DNA of 64,000 nucleotides from Promethearchaeota archaeon (GTDB lineage: Archaea; Asgardarchaeota; Lokiarchaeia; Sigyniarchaeales; SOKP01): contig JAEOSU010000032.1 of NCBI GenBank assembly GCA_016840165.1, positions 32,001 through 96,000 on the forward strand, read 5' to 3'. The translations under genes and the position numbers were made by a program. Positions 1,915-35,750 of the stretch are shown here, piece after piece. The notes under the pieces are model-generated. The model was not told the DNA's origin. It was given only the letters and a program-made list of their open reading frames with translations, and did no database searches. How positions within the stretch are numbered: position 1 is the first letter of the stretch; each line of letters begins with the position of its first letter.

Positions 1915-2688
1915 TTAAGCTTCTTCTTCTTCTTCTAATTCTTTGCCCATTAATCGCATTACGGCATCAGCAAGCTTATTCTGGCTTCGACTCATTATTC
2001 CTTTAATTTTACCCTCTACTCCAGTTACTCTTAGCATGATACCGTTCCATACTGAGCCAGGTTCCCCTTTAACATTTTTAAATCTATCGCGATGAACTTC
2101 TACTTCAATATTATCATACTTTTTAGCGGCCTCAGAGCATTTAAAGCATAATATACATTTATCTTTATCCACAACGATCTCTTTTCCGTCTCGAGACATC
2201 GCATCTACTGAACATTCATCCACAAACTGATCGATAATCTTTGTATCCTTTTCATTGCAAGTTATTTTTATCGACCCTTCTACGACTTTTCGTACTTTGC
2301 GACCATCTTCCAAGGTTCTTACTTCTTCCTCAAATTCGGGAAGAGAACCATTTTCAACCAGTAATATTTTACTTTCTCCATTGATTAGCAACTCTAAGGT
2401 ATGTCCTGGGCATATCCAACTACAGCTGCCACACCATATGCACTTATCAGTATCTACTACAATTTTCTTATCAGATTCGATCCTCATCTCTTCTGGAGTC
2501 CCAATAGCAGTCTTTTTGAGAGGTTCATCATAAATAGATATCGTAACGGGGCAAACTCGATGACAAAATCCACATTCAATGCATTTAGACTCATCATATT
2601 TCAATATCATTTCATGATTGAGCATTTTATATACATAATGCGTGATATTCTCATCTACTTGGACAGCTTCCTTTTTCGGTAATGACAT
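1915..2688 (-). CDS. polyferredoxin / multi-4Fe-4S protein (FwdF/MvhB-like)
   Basis: CIECGFCHRVCP, CIWCGSCSWICP and CILCFKC motifs; lies downstream of hdrA-mvhD-fdhB-like genes. Confidence 0.75.
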   Translation of the reverse strand: MSLPKKEAVQVDENITHYVYKMLNHEMILKYDESKCIECGFCHRVCPVTISIYDEPLKKTAIGTPEEMRIESDKKIVVDTDKCIWCGSCSWICPGHTLELLINGESKILLVENGSLPEFEEEVRTLEDGRKVRKVVEGSIKITCNEKDTKIIDQFVDECSVDAMSRDGKEIVVDKDKCILCFKCSEAAKKYDNIEVEVHRDRFKNVKGEPGSVWNGIMLRVTGVEGKIKGIMSRSQNKLADAVMRLMGKELEEEEEA

Positions 2689-2731
2689 AACTTTTCACTT
2701 TTAACAATATTTTTTTAAATAATAAAATAAA

Positions 2732-3871
2732 TTATGTTTTTTCTAATTCCATTTTTCTAATTGCTTTCCCTGATCTAAAAGGAATATCTTCAACGCTTTC
2801 TCCAGTGGTATAACTAAATGCTTTTTTGAATTCTTCGTTTAAAGATTGAAAGTATAGAGATAACGGTAAGTGTACAGGACAGTTATTATCACAATTTCCG
2901 CATTCAACGCAACGATCAGCGACATGAGCAATTCGGGTTAATTGATAAGTCTCTTTATTGATTGTTTTATCCTTACGCTTTTGTTGTAAAATGCAATCAA
3001 CACAATAGCAAACGGGACACCCTCTGATACACATACCACACATGGTACATGCTTGTAATCGAGCAATTTTCTCTTCTTGCGGGGTTTTATCCCATTCTTC
3101 CAAGTCTTTTGCTCTTTTTGCTAATGCCTTTTCCTTAATTTCCTTCATCTTTTCTGTGTGAGTGGTTTTCACATCTCCAGGAAGATCCTTTTTAGCTATT
3201 TTTGATGTCTCAATAAGATTAGCGCCTTTATCGGAATATGCTTTTAATATAATTTCCTCTGAATCAATTGGAATCCCAATATCACTTATACCTAGATCCG
3301 CTATCACAGGGATCTTCCGAGTACATCGTGAGCAATTCTCAGCAATGGTTAAATTCACTTCTTTTGTTTTCCCATCGTCCATTAGAAGGATTAAGCCATT
3401 ATCCCCAACTTTTTCTTTTACCACTTTTGTAGTGTCAACATCCTTGATCTTCTTTATCTCCCGGGAAACATTAATTATCATGCCTCTATCTTCGAAGGCA
3501 ATGATAAAAAGATTATCCAAATTAATTTGCTTAATTTTAGCTAATTCTATCAACGCCCGAGTGTCACAAGGACGAGCGATAAGGGCTACTTTTTCTTGCA
3601 TTGCTCCATTTACTGATTTATGTAAAAATTTTGCAGCCGAATCTGTTCTGGCATAACCATATGTGATGAGATTGGTTAATGGAAAATCTTTGATAGCATC
3701 TGGCTTCTCATATACTACAGGGGATACCGAAAATCGATCTTCTTCATTAGTTTTTTTGTTAACTTTTGTTTCTGCTCCAATGATTTTGTCAACGATTTTT
3801 TCGTTCAAGAGAGCAGTAAGTAGTTTTGGAAAATCTTCTATTTTTATCAGATACTCTGCTATTGCTTCCAA
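2732..3871 (-). CDS. coenzyme F420 hydrogenase/dehydrogenase beta-subunit family protein (FdhB-like)
   Basis: ARPCDTRAL, CSRC, ADLGI, CTMCGMCIRGCPVCYC and RCVECGNCDNNCP motifs typical of FdhB. Confidence 0.8.
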   Translation of the reverse strand: MEAIAEYLIKIEDFPKLLTALLNEKIVDKIIGAETKVNKKTNEEDRFSVSPVVYEKPDAIKDFPLTNLITYGYARTDSAAKFLHKSVNGAMQEKVALIARPCDTRALIELAKIKQINLDNLFIIAFEDRGMIINVSREIKKIKDVDTTKVVKEKVGDNGLILLMDDGKTKEVNLTIAENCSRCTRKIPVIADLGISDIGIPIDSEEIILKAYSDKGANLIETSKIAKKDLPGDVKTTHTEKMKEIKEKALAKRAKDLEEWDKTPQEEKIARLQACTMCGMCIRGCPVCYCVDCILQQKRKDKTINKETYQLTRIAHVADRCVECGNCDNNCPVHLPLSLYFQSLNEEFKKAFSYTTGESVEDIPFRSGKAIRKMELEKT

Positions 3872-3965
3872 ATTTATTCAACTCAATATATTTTCCTTAA
3901 ATTTTTTTATATGAATTACTTTAAAATTCCTTTTCCAATGCAATTTATTATTAAATTACTATTTT

Positions 3966-4038
3966 ATGTGTATTATGGGGCTTCCATTACTTCAACTGAG
4001 TTCTCATTTTTTTAACTCAGTATCATAAGTTAACACAT
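3966..4038 (-). promoter_or_regulatory. SECIS element (eukaryote-like) in the 3' UTR of the hdrA-mvhD selenoprotein operon
   Basis: Minus strand reads ATGA-T-ACTGAGTT-AAAAAAATGAG-AACTCAGT-T-GA-A (core 4026-3991; perfect 8-bp stem, A-rich loop). A lower stem ATGTGT/ACACAT closes it. It starts 6 nt after the mvhD stop. Confidence 0.85.
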
Positions 4039-4044
4039 TTTTAT

Positions 4045-4509
4045 TTAAGCCTTAGCTTTCGCTTTGGCTTTTTCTTTTTTTTGTGTGTCGCTTTTTGGAC
4101 GGAGTGGACTTGGACCTAACTTCCGTATTTCCTCATCGAATTCCGTTGCTACTTTTTGAAACTTCGCACCTTCCGCAGAACTGCAGAATTCCATCCTCAA
4201 TCTTTTGGGATTAACTCCAATGGTTTTAGCAATTTTTTCTAGATATTCTACTTGTCGATAAGCAAAATAATTTCCGTCTTCATAATCGCATTCACCAGGG
4301 TATCAACCAACTACTAGAACGCCATCGGCTCCTCTTCCAAAAGCTCTCATTATTAAGTCCGCTCCAACTCTACCAGTACAGGGAACTAATACAGTACGTA
4401 ATGACGTCGGATACTGTGCTCGAATTGTTCCTGCCATATCTGCGCCACCATATCCTCATTTCAAACACAAAAATGCTAATATCTTTATCTTTTTTTCATT
4501 CTCTGCCAT
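4045..4509 (-). CDS. mvhD: MvhD/VhuD hydrogenase iron-sulfur subunit, selenoprotein (Sec18, Sec69), 154 aa
   Basis: MAENEKKIKILAFLCLK-U-GYGGADMAG...VPCTGRV...GADGVLVVG-U-YPGECDYEDGN...FCSSAEG. In-frame TGA at 4456-4458 and 4303-4305 align with Cys of the paralog at 14564-15049 (CCNWCSY; GCHIGDCHY). SD GGTGA upstream, TAA stop, SECIS downstream. Confidence 0.93.
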
Positions 4510-4523
4510 TTAATCACCCTTGT

Positions 4524-6500
4524 TTACTCCTCGAGTGGTAATAATTCATCAATATAAGCCATATATTGAATGTCTTTATAATGTGCTAGTTCTATTGCTT
4601 TCGAAGGACAAGTAGCCGCACATATTCCGCAACCTCTGCAGCTAATAAGATCAACTACAATTAATCCCTCTTCGTTGACTGAAATAGCACTATAAGGACA
4701 AGCTTCAATACATTTGTAGCATTTAGCGCAACGTTCGTCTATTGGTTTAGCACGGATTAATTCCATGGTATATTCCTCATGTTTCATAGGAATTCCAGCA
4801 GTCGAAGCAGCTCCTTTAGCCTGACTAACAGCAAGATCTATCGACTTCTGGCCTTGGCATGAACCTGCTAAATAGACTCCTGGAACTTTTGTATTAATAG
4901 GGTCGAGTCTGGCATGCACTTCTTTTAAGAAACCATCAGAAGTCTTTTCGATATTCATTACCGAAGCAATCTGATTGGTTCCTTGAGATGGTAGTGATGC
5001 TGAAGACAAGATTACCATATCAAATTCCATCTGCACTACGGAGTCGGTTCCTACTGGTTCAAGCTGTACTTTCAGATTCTTAGTTATTGGATCCTCTTCA
5101 ATTTTACCAATTAAACCCTTAATGAAGATAATCCCTGCATCTCTTGCTCGTCGATAGTACTCTTCATACATTTTCCCGCCACAGCGCATGTCTATATAGC
5201 TTACTACTATCTCGGAATCGGGGTATTCAGACATTATCAGTTTTGAATTTTTTACGGAAAGATTGCAACAGACGACACTACAATACTCATTTGTGTTTAA
5301 ATCTCGAGATCCTACGCAGTTGATAAATAAAACTCTTTTTGGACGAGTTCTATCAGAAGGTCTTTTCAAGTGACCGAAAGTTGGACCATTAGGAGCAAGT
5401 ATTCGTTCTAATTGGATTTGAGTGATTACATTATCATAAGTACCATATCCATAATCATCTCCTTGATAGAGGTCCCAACCAGTAGCTACGATTATTGTTC
5501 CTATTTCTAATTCTACAATTTCGTCTTGCTGACTAAAATCTATCGCATCAGTATCACATGCATCTACACAAGCAAAACATTCGACACAAGAGTTTCTCTC
5601 AATATTAGAGATTGCTGGAACCGCCTGAGCGAATGCTATATCAATACATTTTCGAGCGGACAGATTTTCATCAAAGTAATTCGGGACATAGATAGGACAC
5701 ATTTCCGTACAACTGCCACAACCGGTGCATAGTTTTTCATTGACAAACCGTGCCTTTCGATTCACTTGCACTCGAAAATTACCAATATAGCCATCGACCT
5801 TTACCACTTCGCTATAAGACATTATTTCGATATTTTCATGCCTATCAGCTTCAAGCATGCGTGGTCCGAGAATTCAAATACTACAATCATCCGTAGGGAA
5901 TGTTCGATCAAGCTGGGACATTCTCCCTCCAATAGTAGTATTTTTTTCGACTAAATACACTTTATAGCCTGCATCACCTAAATCAATCGCAGTACTTAAA
6001 CCTGCAATGCCTCCACCTATTACTAAAGCAGTTGGATTGACTGGTACTGTTTTCGTAGGTATATCTTCTAACAGTTGGGCTCTTGAAATACCTGCCTTTA
6101 TCAGTTCGATCGCTTTTTGAGTAGCTTCATCATAAACTTCTTTCGATTGGTGTACATAACTACAGTGTTCTCTAATATTTGAAAATTCTAAATATCTTTG
6201 TGGCATCCCTGCCTCTTTTAATATTCCATGGAACACTGGTTCATGCGTTAATGGTGTTCAAGCGGCTACAACTATGCGATCAAAGCCTTTCTCTTCAATT
6301 TGTTCTTTTATGTATTCCGCTCCACCGGACGTACACATGTTGAGATATTCGTATGCATATACATTTGGCAATTTATTAATCTCTTCGACGATCTTTGGAA
6401 CATCTAAAGTTCCCGCGATGTTTATCCCTCACCGACACACAAATGTGCCAACAACTGGCAATTTATCGTTTTTATCTTCCTTGGTCTGTTTTTCAGACAA
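4524..6500 (-). CDS. hdrA: heterodisulfide reductase subunit A, selenoprotein (Sec24, Sec81, Sec209), 658 aa
   Basis: One continuous frame from TTG at 6500 (GGTG SD) joins ORF-track pieces 5874-6236 and 4524-5858. TGA at 6429-6431 (FVCR-U-GINIAG), 6258-6260 (VAA-U-TPLTHE) and 5874-5876 (TDDCSI-U-ILGP) all correspond to Cys in the paralog at 15083-18169. FAD motif GGGIAG and ferredoxin motifs are present. Confidence 0.93.
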
Positions 6501-6681
6501 GTTTTACACCTTTTTAAATATATCCTCCTAATTTTTTAAGAGTGTAAGTTACAAAATCTCTATTTACTAGTGTCTAATAGATTGTATTTATGATATTGTT
6601 AATAGTTCTTATTTTTTAAGTTCAATTGTTATTAAATTTCATTGAGGATAAACATATTTTTACAAGAATGGAAATTTCCTT

Positions 6682-7863
6682 TTATTTTAAATCTAATTGT
6701 AATAATTTCTTGAGGTCATTTCGATTATTAGGTAATCTATATTCTTCCAGAAGTGTGATTAAATCTGTTGTTTCCAAACTTTCATCAATCCATAAATTAT
6801 TATTCAATACTAAGACCCTCAGTACCATCTTTTGATAGTTATTAAGTTGTTTTAATGTCCAAATATTTTGTTCTGGAAGATCGGGAAATACAATCCATAA
6901 TAATGAATAAATTACGTTTAAGGCTTGAATACCACTCAATTTCGATAATACATTTGAAAAATCAGGAACAACTTTTTCGGGGAATTGTACTGCACAGAAT
7001 TTGATAACTTCTGAAATGAATCCTAATAATTCCCCATCATTCCAAGGAAATTCAAAGGGAGATAAATTCATTTCCATTATATTAGGTATTTGCTGCAAAA
7101 TATAATCTATTGGAGTTATATCAACCTCTTCTTTTAAAATATTCACTAGAGCAATTGCTGCAGCTATCTTTACTATAATCGATTTATGTTCTGTAAGAAA
7201 GTTTTTAATTAATAGCTCATCTTTCTTATCTTCTAAATAAGAATCCAGCATAGATAATGAGATCAATGAATTTGCGAGGATTTTATCATCTTTTTCACTT
7301 TTAATTAAATTCCGAATTTTTGGTATAGAATCTGATGCAGCTTCTCTAAACCAAGCAACTCCAAAAATCGCCATTGTTTTTATGGTTGGATCTTTGTTAT
7401 CTAATAAATCGTAATAGGTCTGGACTTCCTTTAGAACAGCTTTATATGAATTGATAAAATCATCAACGTGTTTTAGCCAATCGATGTTAACATCTTCTAG
7501 ACCCTCTGTTTCAGCTTCAGCTTTTAATTCTTCCGGATTAATAGCCCAATCATCTACATTTGGACCTTTAGGCAAAAATGCTTCTGGATAACCTAATGCC
7601 AGATCAACCGTGAATTTAATAAGAATTGCTTTTTCTGGAACGTTTGGATCACGAATTAGCTCAAATATAAAAGGAATCGCATAAGATGTTGCCTCATATC
7701 GAGTTCCTTGATGAAAGATATTGCCATAAAGTTCCCATAAGGCCTCCTTCCTTTCTTCCTCGTCCATAGAGGCCAAAGATCTAATTAGGATCGGTACATC
7801 AGAGGCTTCACCATAAGCGTGCTCAAGGTTAGCCCAATCTATCTCATCTAACCCTTCAAGCAT
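6682..7863 (-). CDS. HEAT-repeat / alpha-solenoid hypothetical protein
   Basis: N-terminal IDWANLEHAYGEASDVP...LYGNIFHQGT motif of a widespread HEAT-repeat family; helical throughout. Confidence 0.6.
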   Translation of the reverse strand: MLEGLDEIDWANLEHAYGEASDVPILIRSLASMDEEERKEALWELYGNIFHQGTRYEATSYAIPFIFELIRDPNVPEKAILIKFTVDLALGYPEAFLPKGPNVDDWAINPEELKAEAETEGLEDVNIDWLKHVDDFINSYKAVLKEVQTYYDLLDNKDPTIKTMAIFGVAWFREAASDSIPKIRNLIKSEKDDKILANSLISLSMLDSYLEDKKDELLIKNFLTEHKSIIVKIAAAIALVNILKEEVDITPIDYILQQIPNIMEMNLSPFEFPWNDGELLGFISEVIKFCAVQFPEKVVPDFSNVLSKLSGIQALNVIYSLLWIVFPDLPEQNIWTLKQLNNYQKMVLRVLVLNNNLWIDESLETTDLITLLEEYRLPNNRNDLKKLLQLDLK

Positions 7864-24692: not shown

Positions 24693-27600
24693 ATGGATCC
24701 AATTACGAATAATTTAACTTACCAATGTCCATTTTGTAATAATCTCCTTGAATCACGATTTTCCAAATGCTATAATATATATTGCGAGGGTCAAAAATTT
24801 GGACTCCATAATTATGTGATTTATAAACTTAATCCTGACCTAGGAGTTGGAAAAATTATTAAGGTTTTAGATATCCCAACTTCCCGATCATTAGATGAGG
24901 AAGATAATAGCACTCTCAAGCTCTTTAAAGTGGAATTTGAAAATAATATCGTGAAAATTATTCATCCTATTGATCTCATTCATTATTTATTTTCGATCAA
25001 TGAAAGAGTTAAAACTCATAAAGGATTTGGAGTGATAAATTCCTCTCATTTTTTAAATAAAGATGGACAAATTTCTTATGAATTACTCTTTTCAGATGGA
25101 AATATGCTTCAAATCTATGAATCTGATCTTTTAGCTCAATATATAACACCAATAAACAAGATTTTATCCCAAAACACTATAGATCCTCCCCAGCAATTTT
25201 TAATTAAATATTGGGCTAATTTGTTTTATTCATATTATACCTCTTATCAAGTTAAATGTATTACAAATTCTCGGCTATCTATGATGCCTCACCAAGTCAA
25301 TGTAGCACATAGATTATCGGAAGAGTTCTTTCCCAAAGTTATTTTAGCAGATGAGGTTGGGCTTGGGAAAACGATTGAGGCAGGAATATTTATCAAAGAA
25401 ATGATGGCTAGGAACTTAGCTGAACGTATTTTGATAATCGTCCCTGCGACATTAGTAAAACAATGGCAATTTGAGCTTCAGAATAAATTTAATATGGAGT
25501 TTACGATTTATGATGGGAAAAAAGTGAAAGAATTAAAAAAGAAACCACTCTTTCGCCAGAAAACAACTTTTCGCAACCCATTTTATTTCGATAATCTTAT
25601 TATTTGCTCTCTCCAATTTGCGCGAAATAGAAAATATATAAAACTCTTATCAGAGATTCCTTGGGATGTAGTTGTATTTGATGAAGCTCATCATCTCAGA
25701 CGGTATCTATTAAACTACTCCACAGGAAATTATAGAAACACCCTCAATTATGAACTTGCTTACAATTTAAGCCAAAATTCTCAATCTTTATTACTTTTAT
25801 CAGCTACACCATTACAATTGCATTCATTTGAACTTTATTCGTTAATCGAGTTGATTCAAAGAGAAGCATTCGATAATTTTTCAGATTTTGAGCATTTCCG
25901 AAAGAATATGCCTTTTATTAATCTTCTTATAACTAACATTAACCAAATAAAAAAATTGAATAATTTTGAAGTAAAAAATACCATTAAATTACTCAAAAAG
26001 CTTAATTATGTGGATCGTAAAAAGGAAGATAAATATATACTAGAAAACCTCCAAGACACGAACTTTAAATCCAAATTATTAAAGAAAATTGAAAGTGACC
26101 ATACACTATCAAAGTTTCTCATACGGAATAGAAAGAAAAATGTCTTTTCGGATGATATATTGAATACTCGGATCGTTAAAACTATTGTAGTAAATCCAAC
26201 ATCAGAAGAACTGAATGTTTACAACGAGATTCGACTCTATTTAGCTAAAATCTATAACTCATCTATGAGTAAGCACAATGTTGGGCTAGGTTTTATCATC
26301 ACTACTCTTCAGAAACTTCTTACTTCTTCAAAATATGCCCTATTAAAAAGTCTTGAAAGACGTTTGGAACAGATTGATAAATTAAAAAGCCTTAGCATCG
26401 GTCTATCTGCATTAAAAGAAGAAGATCCAGAGTTTTTCGAATCTGAATTGGAAAACGAGTATCTCGATACTGAGATCTCTTATCAAAGTAATAATGAAAC
26501 TAATAATAGTTCACAAAATTCTGAACTAGACCTAATTAACCAAGAAAAAATAATAAAGGAGTTTTATAATAAACTCAAAAAGATTCCATACGATTCAAAA
26601 TCAGAGAAATTATTCGAACTAATACAAGAAATTTATCAGCAAAATCCACATGAAAAAATTTTAATCTTCACTCAGTTTGTAGATACTTTATTTCATCTAA
26701 AGGAATTACTTGAAAAACAAAAAGAAGAGTATAAAGTAGAATTGTTTTACGGTGGGATGGATAAAGAAGAAAAAGATGAAGCTGTAGAGCGATTTCGGAC
26801 AAATGAGGGCTTATCTATATTATTATCTACGGAAATAGGAGGGGAAGGACGTAATTTTCAGTTTTCTCGAGTGCTTATAAATTATGATCTTCCCTGGAAT
26901 CCCATGAAGTTGGAACAAAGGATTGGAAGGCTTGATCGAATAGGACAATCTTCTAAGGAAATTTATATTTATAATTTCTTTTTAGAAGGCACTGTTGAAA
27001 CGGATATAATGTTTGCTTTAAATAAGAGAATTCATTTGTTTGAAGAATCAATCGGTCAACTGGAACCAATTATCGGGAAAATTGAAAAGGATATAAGAAA
27101 TATCATCTTTACTGAGGATGATGGTGCTAAAAGAAGAAAATTAAACGAATTTAACCGAAAATTGGATATTGAAGTAAAAAAAGCAAGAGAAAGCAAAATG
27201 CAATTAGATGATCTGCTAATCGATAAGAAATCTTTTCAAATTGATAATCTAATCACCTCAATTGCTGCGTGTGAAGAAGTTAAACTAAGTCATAATGAGT
27301 TATTTTTGTTAGTAAAGTATTGCTTCGAGCTTAGAGATCATAATTTTGGAGACTTTCATATTTCAGATGATTGTGAATTCCAATCTAAAGATATTGTAAA
27401 TTGTGAGATATTACTTCAACCTCAAAAAGGACTTTTAAAAAGATCAAGAAATAAATTATCTAAGGAATATTATGGTACGTTTGGATTAGATCTAGCAAGA
27501 GAAAAAGAAGAGATCGATTTTTTTGCATTAGGTCATCCTTTAATAGACGAAATCATCAATTTATGCCGATCTGATTTCTTCAAAGGCACCTTTACGATTT

Positions 27601-35076: not shown

Positions 35077-35589
35077 ATGAATGATGAGGAACCACCACGG
35101 CCAAATGGACTTCCAACTGGATCTTCAGCCCCACTTATTGATACTAAAGATATCAACGGTAATTCATTAAATTTGAAAAAATTACTCGGAGAATACAATG
35201 GTGTGCTTATTGATTTTTTTCGGGGAAACTGGTGAAAACATTGAAAGGAACATCTTTCCTTACTCACAAAACACATAGAAGAATTTGAAAGAAAGAATGT
35301 AAAAATATTATCCATAGCTAATGACAGCCCTAGACTGCTCGCGAAATTTAAAGAAGAGAATTATTTTAAAATAGATCTTATTGCGGATAGGGGAGCAAAG
35401 ATTGCCAAAGATTATGAAGTCTATTGGTTTGCTCCCGGAGGAACAGGTAAAATGAAGGTAAAGCAAGCAATTCCAAGCAAATTTTTAATTAATGCCAAAG
35501 GAGAAATCGTCTGGATTTATATCGGTAAGGATAAAACCGATAGACCTTCTATCGAAATGATGATGGATGCAATTGATAAAAACTTATAA
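35077..35589 (+). CDS. AhpC/TSA peroxiredoxin-like selenoprotein with UxxU motif (Sec53, Sec56), 170 aa; absent from ORF track
   Basis: MNDEEPPRPNGLPTGSSAPLIDTKDINGNSLNL...VLIDFFRGNW-U-KH-U-KEHL...ILSIAND...DLIADRGAKIAKDYEV...AIPSKFLINAKGEIVWIYIGKDKTDRP. TGA at 35233-35235 and 35242-35244 replace the CxxC. TAA stop, SECIS downstream. Confidence 0.92.
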
Positions 35590-35592
35590 TAA

Positions 35593-35659
35593 TCCCATTT
35601 GAATGAATCATATATAAAAATTATAGATATATGAGGACAACCTTGTAAAAGTTATGGGA
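35593..35659 (+). promoter_or_regulatory. SECIS element (eukaryote-like) in the 3' UTR of the peroxiredoxin-like selenoprotein
   Basis: ATGA-A-TCATATAT-AAAAATTATAG-ATATATGA-G-GA-C (35603-35638), lower stem TCCCAT/ATGGGA; same geometry as the SECIS at 3966-4038. Confidence 0.85.
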
Positions 35660-35750
35660 AATACTTTTTTTTTTACTTATTAAATTATGATTAAAGTATA
35701 GGATCATTTTTACGATATGAAACTTATTTAGAATCAAAAGATTTAGTCAT

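Follow-up and report, generated by a model that had tools for sequence, protein, structure and literature searches.

We analysed a window of 64,000 nucleotides from the genome of a Lokiarchaeial Promethearchaeota archaeon (assembly GCA_016840165.1, contig JAEOSU010000032.1, positions 32,001 to 96,000 of the forward strand), in which the neighbouring genes hdrA and mvhD together contain five in-frame UGA codons and are followed by one selenocysteine insertion sequence (SECIS) of the kind described from Lokiarchaeota (lokiSECIS). This element is the sole detectable SECIS in or around the pair, and on the sequence evidence hdrA and mvhD probably form a coupled bicistronic unit in which the single lokiSECIS after mvhD recodes all five UGA codons as selenocysteine (Sec). 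According to this model, both genes would be carried on one mRNA and be translationally coupled, the eukaryote-like kink-turn SECIS would lie in untranslated RNA directly after mvhD and act on the three hdrA UGA codons 1.85-2.4 kb away, across the hdrA stop codon, and a SECIS-binding factor would bring Sec-tRNA to ribosomes on either cistron. The initial annotation of the window had proposed just such a 3' SECIS serving both cistrons, and in our assessment it is the best-supported explanation and a likely one.

The frames of hdrA (heterodisulfide reductase subunit A) and mvhD (also vhuD, FlpD family) were obtained by reading TGA as Sec; translation with table 11 splits both into fragments. The hdrA product carries ferredoxin and FAD-binding Pfam domains, and its residues 15-654 align with the solved HdrA chain 9sfi_A with an E value of 9e-198, while the mvhD product matches PF02662 (FlpD) with an E value of 1.7e-45. 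The three UGA codons in hdrA, the two in mvhD and the 14-nt spacer with a Shine-Dalgarno motif given in the initial annotation are all present (Table 1), as judged by the Sec-frame reading and the structure alignments, in which every one of the five UGA codons falls on a cysteine (Cys) or Sec column of a solved HdrA or MvhD structure. The first mvhD UGA (residue 18) is common to all four Sec-containing mvhD paralogues of the genome. In orthologues whose mvhD start is unambiguous the spacer measures 12-19 nt and contains a GAGG-type Shine-Dalgarno motif, mostly GAGGT. HdrA and MvhD are thus predicted to be selenoproteins with Sec at the known Cys/Sec columns of their families.

The only SECIS-like hairpin had been placed after mvhD, about 2.4 kb from the first UGA, and we measured 2,405 nt from hdrA UGA 1 to its AUGA. 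A descriptor that asked for [AG]UGA, an 8-12 bp stem allowing one mismatch, a 9-15 nt loop with AA as its first bases and finally GA or AA gave 215 matches on both strands of the 3.6-Mb genome, eight of which have a 9-bp stem, an 11-nt loop and an AAAAA loop start. Seven of these eight lie directly 3' of open reading frames (ORFs) containing TGA: four hdrA-mvhD pairs (contigs C9, C29, C79 and C105), a peroxiredoxin-like gene (PrxL) with a UxxU motif, VhuU and a 61-aa ORF. Compared with shuffled sequences, the element after mvhD folds with a z score of -2.9.

For its conservation we used 83 loci (562 kb), made up of 80 related mvhD loci from public Asgard metagenome-assembled genomes (MAGs) and three paralogues from the same genome. 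An orthologous 73-nt element is found in 39 of the 80 related loci, which we call class A; class B comprises the remaining related loci and the three other pairs of this genome, shares the architecture and also covaries. In an alignment of 36 class A copies (the window and 35 related loci), compensatory changes across the 35 distinct orthologues are seen at seven of the nine stem pairs, 98% of the cells are paired and none of 500 shuffles attains the observed covariation score; the AUGA/GA core varies little or not at all among 36 orthologues. The outer helix, AUGUGU/ACACAU in class A, is replaced by CCGA/UCGG in class B (loci such as L063-L098), and the 3' side hairpin is invariant in class A and covaries in three of its four pairs in class B; Mariotti et al. 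(2016; PMC4989117) do not mention this feature in their main text. The element matches the lokiSECIS family in each of its defining sequence features, and a role in Sec insertion is predicted for it.

A single general model for both classes was abandoned because MAFFT aligned them out of register, and two class-specific covariance models were used instead together with the descriptor: R1, built on class B from the six other lokiSECIS of the genome, and R2, built from the 36 class A copies. The element scores 93.4 bits with R2, its own sequence being one of the 36 training copies. Rfam at gathering thresholds gave no match in the whole window, and its SECIS families do not recognise the element.

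A second SECIS, inside either gene or in the hdrA leader, had been named beforehand as one finding that would speak against a shared element; none was detected in hdrA, mvhD or the hdrA 5' leader by covariance models, descriptor, Rfam, folding or synonymous-site analysis. With filters off and on both strands (R1 on 2600-7000 and the whole window, R2 on the whole window), the models returned no further SECIS within these regions at E<=10. R2 can reach across classes, since its second-best match in the window (35592-35660) is the genuine SECIS of PrxL. A relaxed descriptor found nothing inside the hdrA or mvhD coding sequence of the window's pair or of the 75 related loci with a complete hdrA. 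Some relatives do have descriptor matches some 40-1,470 nt upstream of hdrA, which we rejected as SECIS, being weak (7-8 pairs, with AA as the 3' core in almost every case), unconserved in position and sequence, and showing the AAAAA loop start in one isolated locus only. Rfam at E<=10 on 3700-6800 produced two chance matches, SAM-II and STnc410. The 63 nt 3' of each of the five UGA codons fold no better than shuffled sequences (z -0.05 to -1.6), which excludes bacterial-type hairpins. Finally, synonymous-codon identity was examined in 20-codon windows over 36 non-redundant orthologues (mean nucleotide identity 77%). The profile along hdrA is flat (mean 0.54, standard deviation 0.045) save for the first and last 25 or so codons, the latter overlapping the ribosome-binding site of mvhD. 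Within mvhD no peak is seen, and at its start identity rises to a lesser degree.

The comparison of syntenic Asgard operons suggested in the initial annotation points the same way. At 82 of the 83 loci R1 or R2 has a SECIS match immediately 3' of mvhD, and in the remaining one (L093) the contig ends inside the element. Neither model gave a coding-strand match in or upstream of hdrA at any of the 83 loci, the few extra matches being downstream of the pair and on the other strand. The two genes adjoin in all 79 loci with a complete hdrA, where the full-length hdrA frame is kept at 65-90% identity with UGA solely at Cys columns. Sec occupies column 209 in all 79 genes, column 24 in 78, column 56 in 13, column 81 in nine and columns 258 and 601 in one each, and Cys is found wherever these columns lack Sec.

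Stop codon usage is informative for hdrA. Both genes of the window end in TAA, as had been noted, and this was thought necessary to avoid read-through. For hdrA the need for a non-UGA stop is borne out, given that the 79 complete genes end in TAA (43) or TAG (36) and never in TGA, which ends 15.5% of the long ORFs of this genome, and that TAA and TAG replace each other freely. It does not extend to mvhD, whose paralogues on C29 and C79 stop at the very UGA contained in the AUGA core, implying that mvhD is free of the constraint on hdrA; this fits the minimal-distance rule of the literature. TAG makes up 46% of hdrA stops (36/79; loci L019-L098), as compared with 13.6% for the long ORFs of the genome.

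Table 1. Positions of the hdrA-mvhD pair, its lokiSECIS and other features in the window.
Feature	Position	Strand	Description
hdrA (heterodisulfide reductase subunit A)	4524..6500	(-)	658 aa, TTG start, TAA stop, three Sec codons
hdrA UGA 1	6429..6431	(-)	residue 24, CRUG; aligns with Cys of 9sfi_A
hdrA UGA 2	6258..6260	(-)	residue 81, AAUTP; aligns with Cys of 9sfi_A
hdrA UGA 3	5874..5876	(-)	residue 209, DDCSIU; canonical HdrA Sec position, FAD-proximal; aligns with deposited Sec ('X') of 9sfi_A
hdrA-mvhD spacer	4510..4523	(-)	14 nt, GGTGAT Shine-Dalgarno motif inside
mvhD / vhuD (FlpD family)	4045..4509	(-)	154 aa, ATG start, TAA stop, two Sec codons
mvhD UGA 1	4456..4458	(-)	residue 18, CLKUG; aligns with Cys of 8rvu_F
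mvhD UGA 2	4303..4305	(-)	residue 69, VGUYPGEC; aligns with Cys of 8rvu_F; 279 nt upstream of SECIS AUGA
lokiSECIS element (predicted)	3966..4038	(-)	73 nt, begins 6 nt past mvhD stop
SECIS outer helix	4033-4038 with complement in 3966-3990	(-)	AUGUGU/ACACAU (class A)
SECIS AUGA core	4023-4026	(-)	18 nt past mvhD TAA
SECIS main stem	4014-4022 with 3994-4002	(-)	9 positions: 8 Watson-Crick pairs and U.U
SECIS apical loop	4003-4013	(-)	11 nt, A-rich, seven A first; AAAAAAAUGAG
SECIS GA core	3992-3993	(-)	3' partner of AUGA
SECIS 3' side hairpin	within 3966-3990	(-)	AUGG..CCAU
Start-codon-proximal hairpin of hdrA	6484..6498, extension 6478-6503	(-)	G-UCUG / loop / CAGA-C
A/T-rich block (putative promoter)	6590..6620	(-)	about 105 nt upstream of hdrA start, conserved among orthologues
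FrhB/FdhB-like iron-sulfur protein gene	2732..3871	(-)	379 aa, begins 94 nt past SECIS element
PrxL selenoprotein gene	~35080-35590	(+)	170-aa peroxiredoxin-like ORF, UxxU motif (residues 53, 56)
PrxL lokiSECIS	35600-35640	(+)	begins 13 nt past stop, 58 bits to R1

Several points weigh against a shared SECIS. Scored with R1, whose training set leaves the element out, it ranks first in 2600-7000 with 11.1 bits only (E 0.46 in 4.4 kb); since the six training lokiSECIS are near-identical in stem sequence, we attribute this to overfitting of the model, and it is thus through the descriptor, the covariation and the orthologue model that the element is recognised. Two metatranscriptome runs contain contigs of 151-261 nt matching parts of hdrA, of mvhD and of the start of the downstream gene, yet at >=99% identity none of these RNA-library contigs spans 4509-4524 and none links mvhD to the SECIS. 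A 151-nt contig from a relative, with 10 mismatches, continues past the 3' end of hdrA into dissimilar sequence resembling a spacer and ATG; it was not counted, because a contig over two genes proves no single transcript and RNA libraries may hold DNA. No tRNA-Sec was found in the 105-contig MAG, where RF01852 gave only sub-threshold matches, the best being a tRNA-His, and ARAGORN gave none. ARAGORN reports just 11-13 tRNAs in total in this MAG, rated 99.7% complete, so we take the missing tRNA-Sec as a limit of detection or assembly; the low total suggests that intron-containing or atypical tRNAs escape ARAGORN here. A recoding signal of unknown kind would escape all the searches made. Moreover, lokiSECIS elements are known from bioinformatics only, and one of them, from vhuU, did not function in Methanococcus maripaludis (Peiter and Rother, 2025; PMC11881835).

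Synonymous constraint in hdrA is strongly raised at its 5' end (0.81 in the first ~20 codons against the mean of 0.54, z 5.9) and is attributable to an invariant hairpin at the start codon, in which the G of the start codon and the following UCUG pair with CAGA-C around a loop of 5-8 nt. Both arms are kept in all 37 class A leader sequences (36 orthologues and the window). Where the loop is longer by 1 nt, as at two loci, the 3' arm is read in another frame and still keeps its nucleotides, so that it is the RNA which is constrained. In leaders with TTG, the prevalent start, a UUG/CAA extension pairs the entire start codon, and one GTG start is matched by CAC. RNAalifold on the hdrA 5' leader recovers this invariant hairpin alone, with zero covariation, and the genome has just two copies of the motif, each at an hdrA start (C9 and C105). 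We rejected it as a hidden SECIS, as it bears no SECIS hallmark and is absent from two of the genome's four Sec-hdrA genes. It is likely to be a control element for translation initiation. That the hairpin and a structured leader form a cis-regulatory RNA gating translation of the whole five-UGA bicistron, perhaps according to the supply of selenium or Sec-tRNA or through 5'-3' communication with the SECIS complex, is a speculation to which we give very little credence; if true, it would add a control layer specific to long-range, cross-cistron Sec decoding.

The same hairpin bears on the possibility that the SECIS serves mvhD alone, hdrA having its own non-SECIS-like signal in the start hairpin, the 5' leader or a diffuse element within the coding sequence. 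One SECIS of Methanococcus, that of fdhA, lies in a 5' UTR (untranslated region), which gives a precedent, and the constraint on the first ~20 codons and the invariance of the GUCUG-loop-CAGAC hairpin in 37 of 37 orthologues despite the frame-shifting loop insertion likewise speak for it. However, the hairpin has neither an AUGA/GA core nor a GAA_A bulge, it sequesters the start codon and so points to initiation control, and synonymous sites reveal no other constrained region in hdrA beyond those described. In addition, most class B loci lack the hairpin, as do the Sec-hdrA genes of C29 and C79; these likewise have Sec at 24 and 209, and the hairpin is consequently no general requirement for hdrA Sec decoding. 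We regard a separate hdrA signal as highly improbable.

Separate or processed transcripts, with the hdrA UGA codons decoded inefficiently, without a SECIS or terminating into fragments, would be in keeping with the lack of a bridging RNA-library contig and with the fragmentation of hdrA under table 11. Against this, the 14-nt spacer with its Shine-Dalgarno motif is too short for a terminator plus a promoter, the genes are adjacent in 79 of 79 loci, and an overlapping pair is on record (PMC4989117). hdrA also avoids UGA as a stop, as expected if UGA in the cistron is read as Sec, and termination or decay into a pseudogene is incompatible with a full-length frame conserved over 79 loci with UGA solely at Cys columns. 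This explanation appears highly improbable. We consider it extremely improbable that UGA is not Sec at all, being read by Cys or Trp insertion or through a genome-wide reassignment, with the hairpin after mvhD acting as a terminator or stability element. The undetected tRNA-Sec would agree with such a scheme; nevertheless, the share of long ORFs ended by TGA rules out a genome-wide reassignment, and in-frame UGA is confined to known selenoprotein families (HdrA, MvhD, PrxL and VhuU), each with an AUGA, A-rich loop and GA element 3'. Residue 209, moreover, is Sec in the solved HdrA, and the genome encodes SepSecS (371 bits) and a SelB/EFSec-family protein (246 bits), both on contig C63 and about 6 kb apart. 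One lokiSECIS recoding both cistrons thus remains the explanation we favour.

The surroundings of the pair can be described in similar terms. The A/T-rich block upstream of hdrA is a putative archaeal TATA/BRE (B recognition element) promoter of the hdrA-mvhD unit. Downstream, the FrhB-like gene is syntenic in all 37 class A loci having enough downstream sequence (36 related loci and the window). Its rare TTG start aligns with the ATG of most orthologues, and a conserved GAGTTGG motif precedes the start. The spacer between the SECIS and this gene is A/T-rich, with a weakly conserved TATA-like motif, which makes it plausible that the FrhB-like gene is driven by its own promoter, in which case the SECIS would be part of a true 3' UTR.

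Other selenoprotein genes were observed alongside the pair. Contigs C29 (L017), C79 (L016) and C105 (L018) of the same genome hold three more Sec-containing hdrA-mvhD pairs, with 2-3 UGA codons in hdrA and two in mvhD, each pair having one SECIS of the other sequence class than that of the window. On C29 and C105 a long ORF containing TGA begins just ~25-50 nt past the SECIS, which may accordingly be intercistronic on these contigs instead of 3' untranslated. The window itself also contains the PrxL selenoprotein gene with its own lokiSECIS (Table 1). On contig C82 a canonical lokiSECIS (AUGA at 26143 (-); locus L014:1607-1647 (-)) follows the 61-aa ORF mentioned above, whose N-terminus is hydrophobic and whose single in-frame UGA sits in a GUGC motif; the ORF may encode a small membrane selenoprotein beyond the five listed Asgard families. 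Among the related loci, L061 (JAWODV010000081.1), binned as 'Kosmotogaceae bacterium', has a Sec-containing mvhD with an Asgard-type lokiSECIS directly 3' and is most likely a mis-binned Asgard contig.

The arrangement described here has already been published. In Lokiarchaeota, HdrA and VhuD genes were reported always as tandem pairs with very short or overlapping junctions, a single lokiSECIS per pair downstream of VhuD and an HdrA stop codon that is always UAA or UAG (Mariotti et al., 2016; PMC4989117), and the shared SECIS was later extended to Asgard MAGs generally, with 227 Sec-utilizing Asgard genomes (Huang et al., 2024; PMC11227280). The window agrees with the Lokiarchaeota case in the gene pair, order, strand and very short spacer, in a multi-Sec HdrA at matching Cys columns together with a two-Sec VhuD/MvhD, in the lone element after the second gene with AUGA, a 9-bp stem, an 11-nt A-rich loop and GA, and in an hdrA stop that is never UGA; the published pairs have up to six UGA codons over about 2 kb. 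There is no difference in kind: the locus is an orthologue from another MAG, and the initial annotation is an independent rediscovery of the shared-SECIS arrangement. Co-transcription and SECIS function are, in the literature as here, deduced rather than observed. What our analysis adds is a quantitative negative search for a cryptic second element over 83 loci (covariance models, synonymous sites and local folding), the two sequence classes of hdrA-mvhD SECIS, a defined conserved 73-nt element and the hdrA start-codon hairpin.

Among more distant systems, VhuD of Methanococcales and Methanopyrus has one 3' SECIS for two UGA codons ~50 codons apart and resembles our case in the protein, the two Sec positions, the 3'-UTR element and AUGA before the stem (PMC4989117); it differs in that the methanogen SECIS is of the archaeal GAA_A type and that methanogen hdrA has its own SECIS according to the literature. 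Bacterial Sec genes share the polycistronic, Shine-Dalgarno-driven organisation, whereas their SECIS is a SelB-binding hairpin within the coding sequence immediately 3' of each UGA, and no significant hairpin follows any of the five UGA codons here. The eukaryotic 3'-UTR SECIS, as in SELENOP with its many UGA codons and two SECIS, acts on a monocistronic mRNA, while in the present case a stop codon and a re-initiation site would stand between the element and the UGA codons of hdrA; Asgard archaea have no known SBP2 homologue (PMC4989117), and the Rfam model of the eukaryotic type gives no match to the element, whose upper stem is shorter. Both have a kink-turn AUGA/GA core and an A-rich apical loop, and the 3' location, the kilobase range and the use of one element for several UGA codons are those proposed here. 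If real in vivo, this would be the only known SECIS acting across a stop codon, serving the UGA codons of two cistrons over 2.4 kb, and could plausibly stand midway between the operon logic of prokaryotes and the 3'-UTR Sec decoding of eukaryotes. The argument dates from 2016 and was extended in 2024; the window accordingly stands as one more orthologous example of it and not as a discovery.

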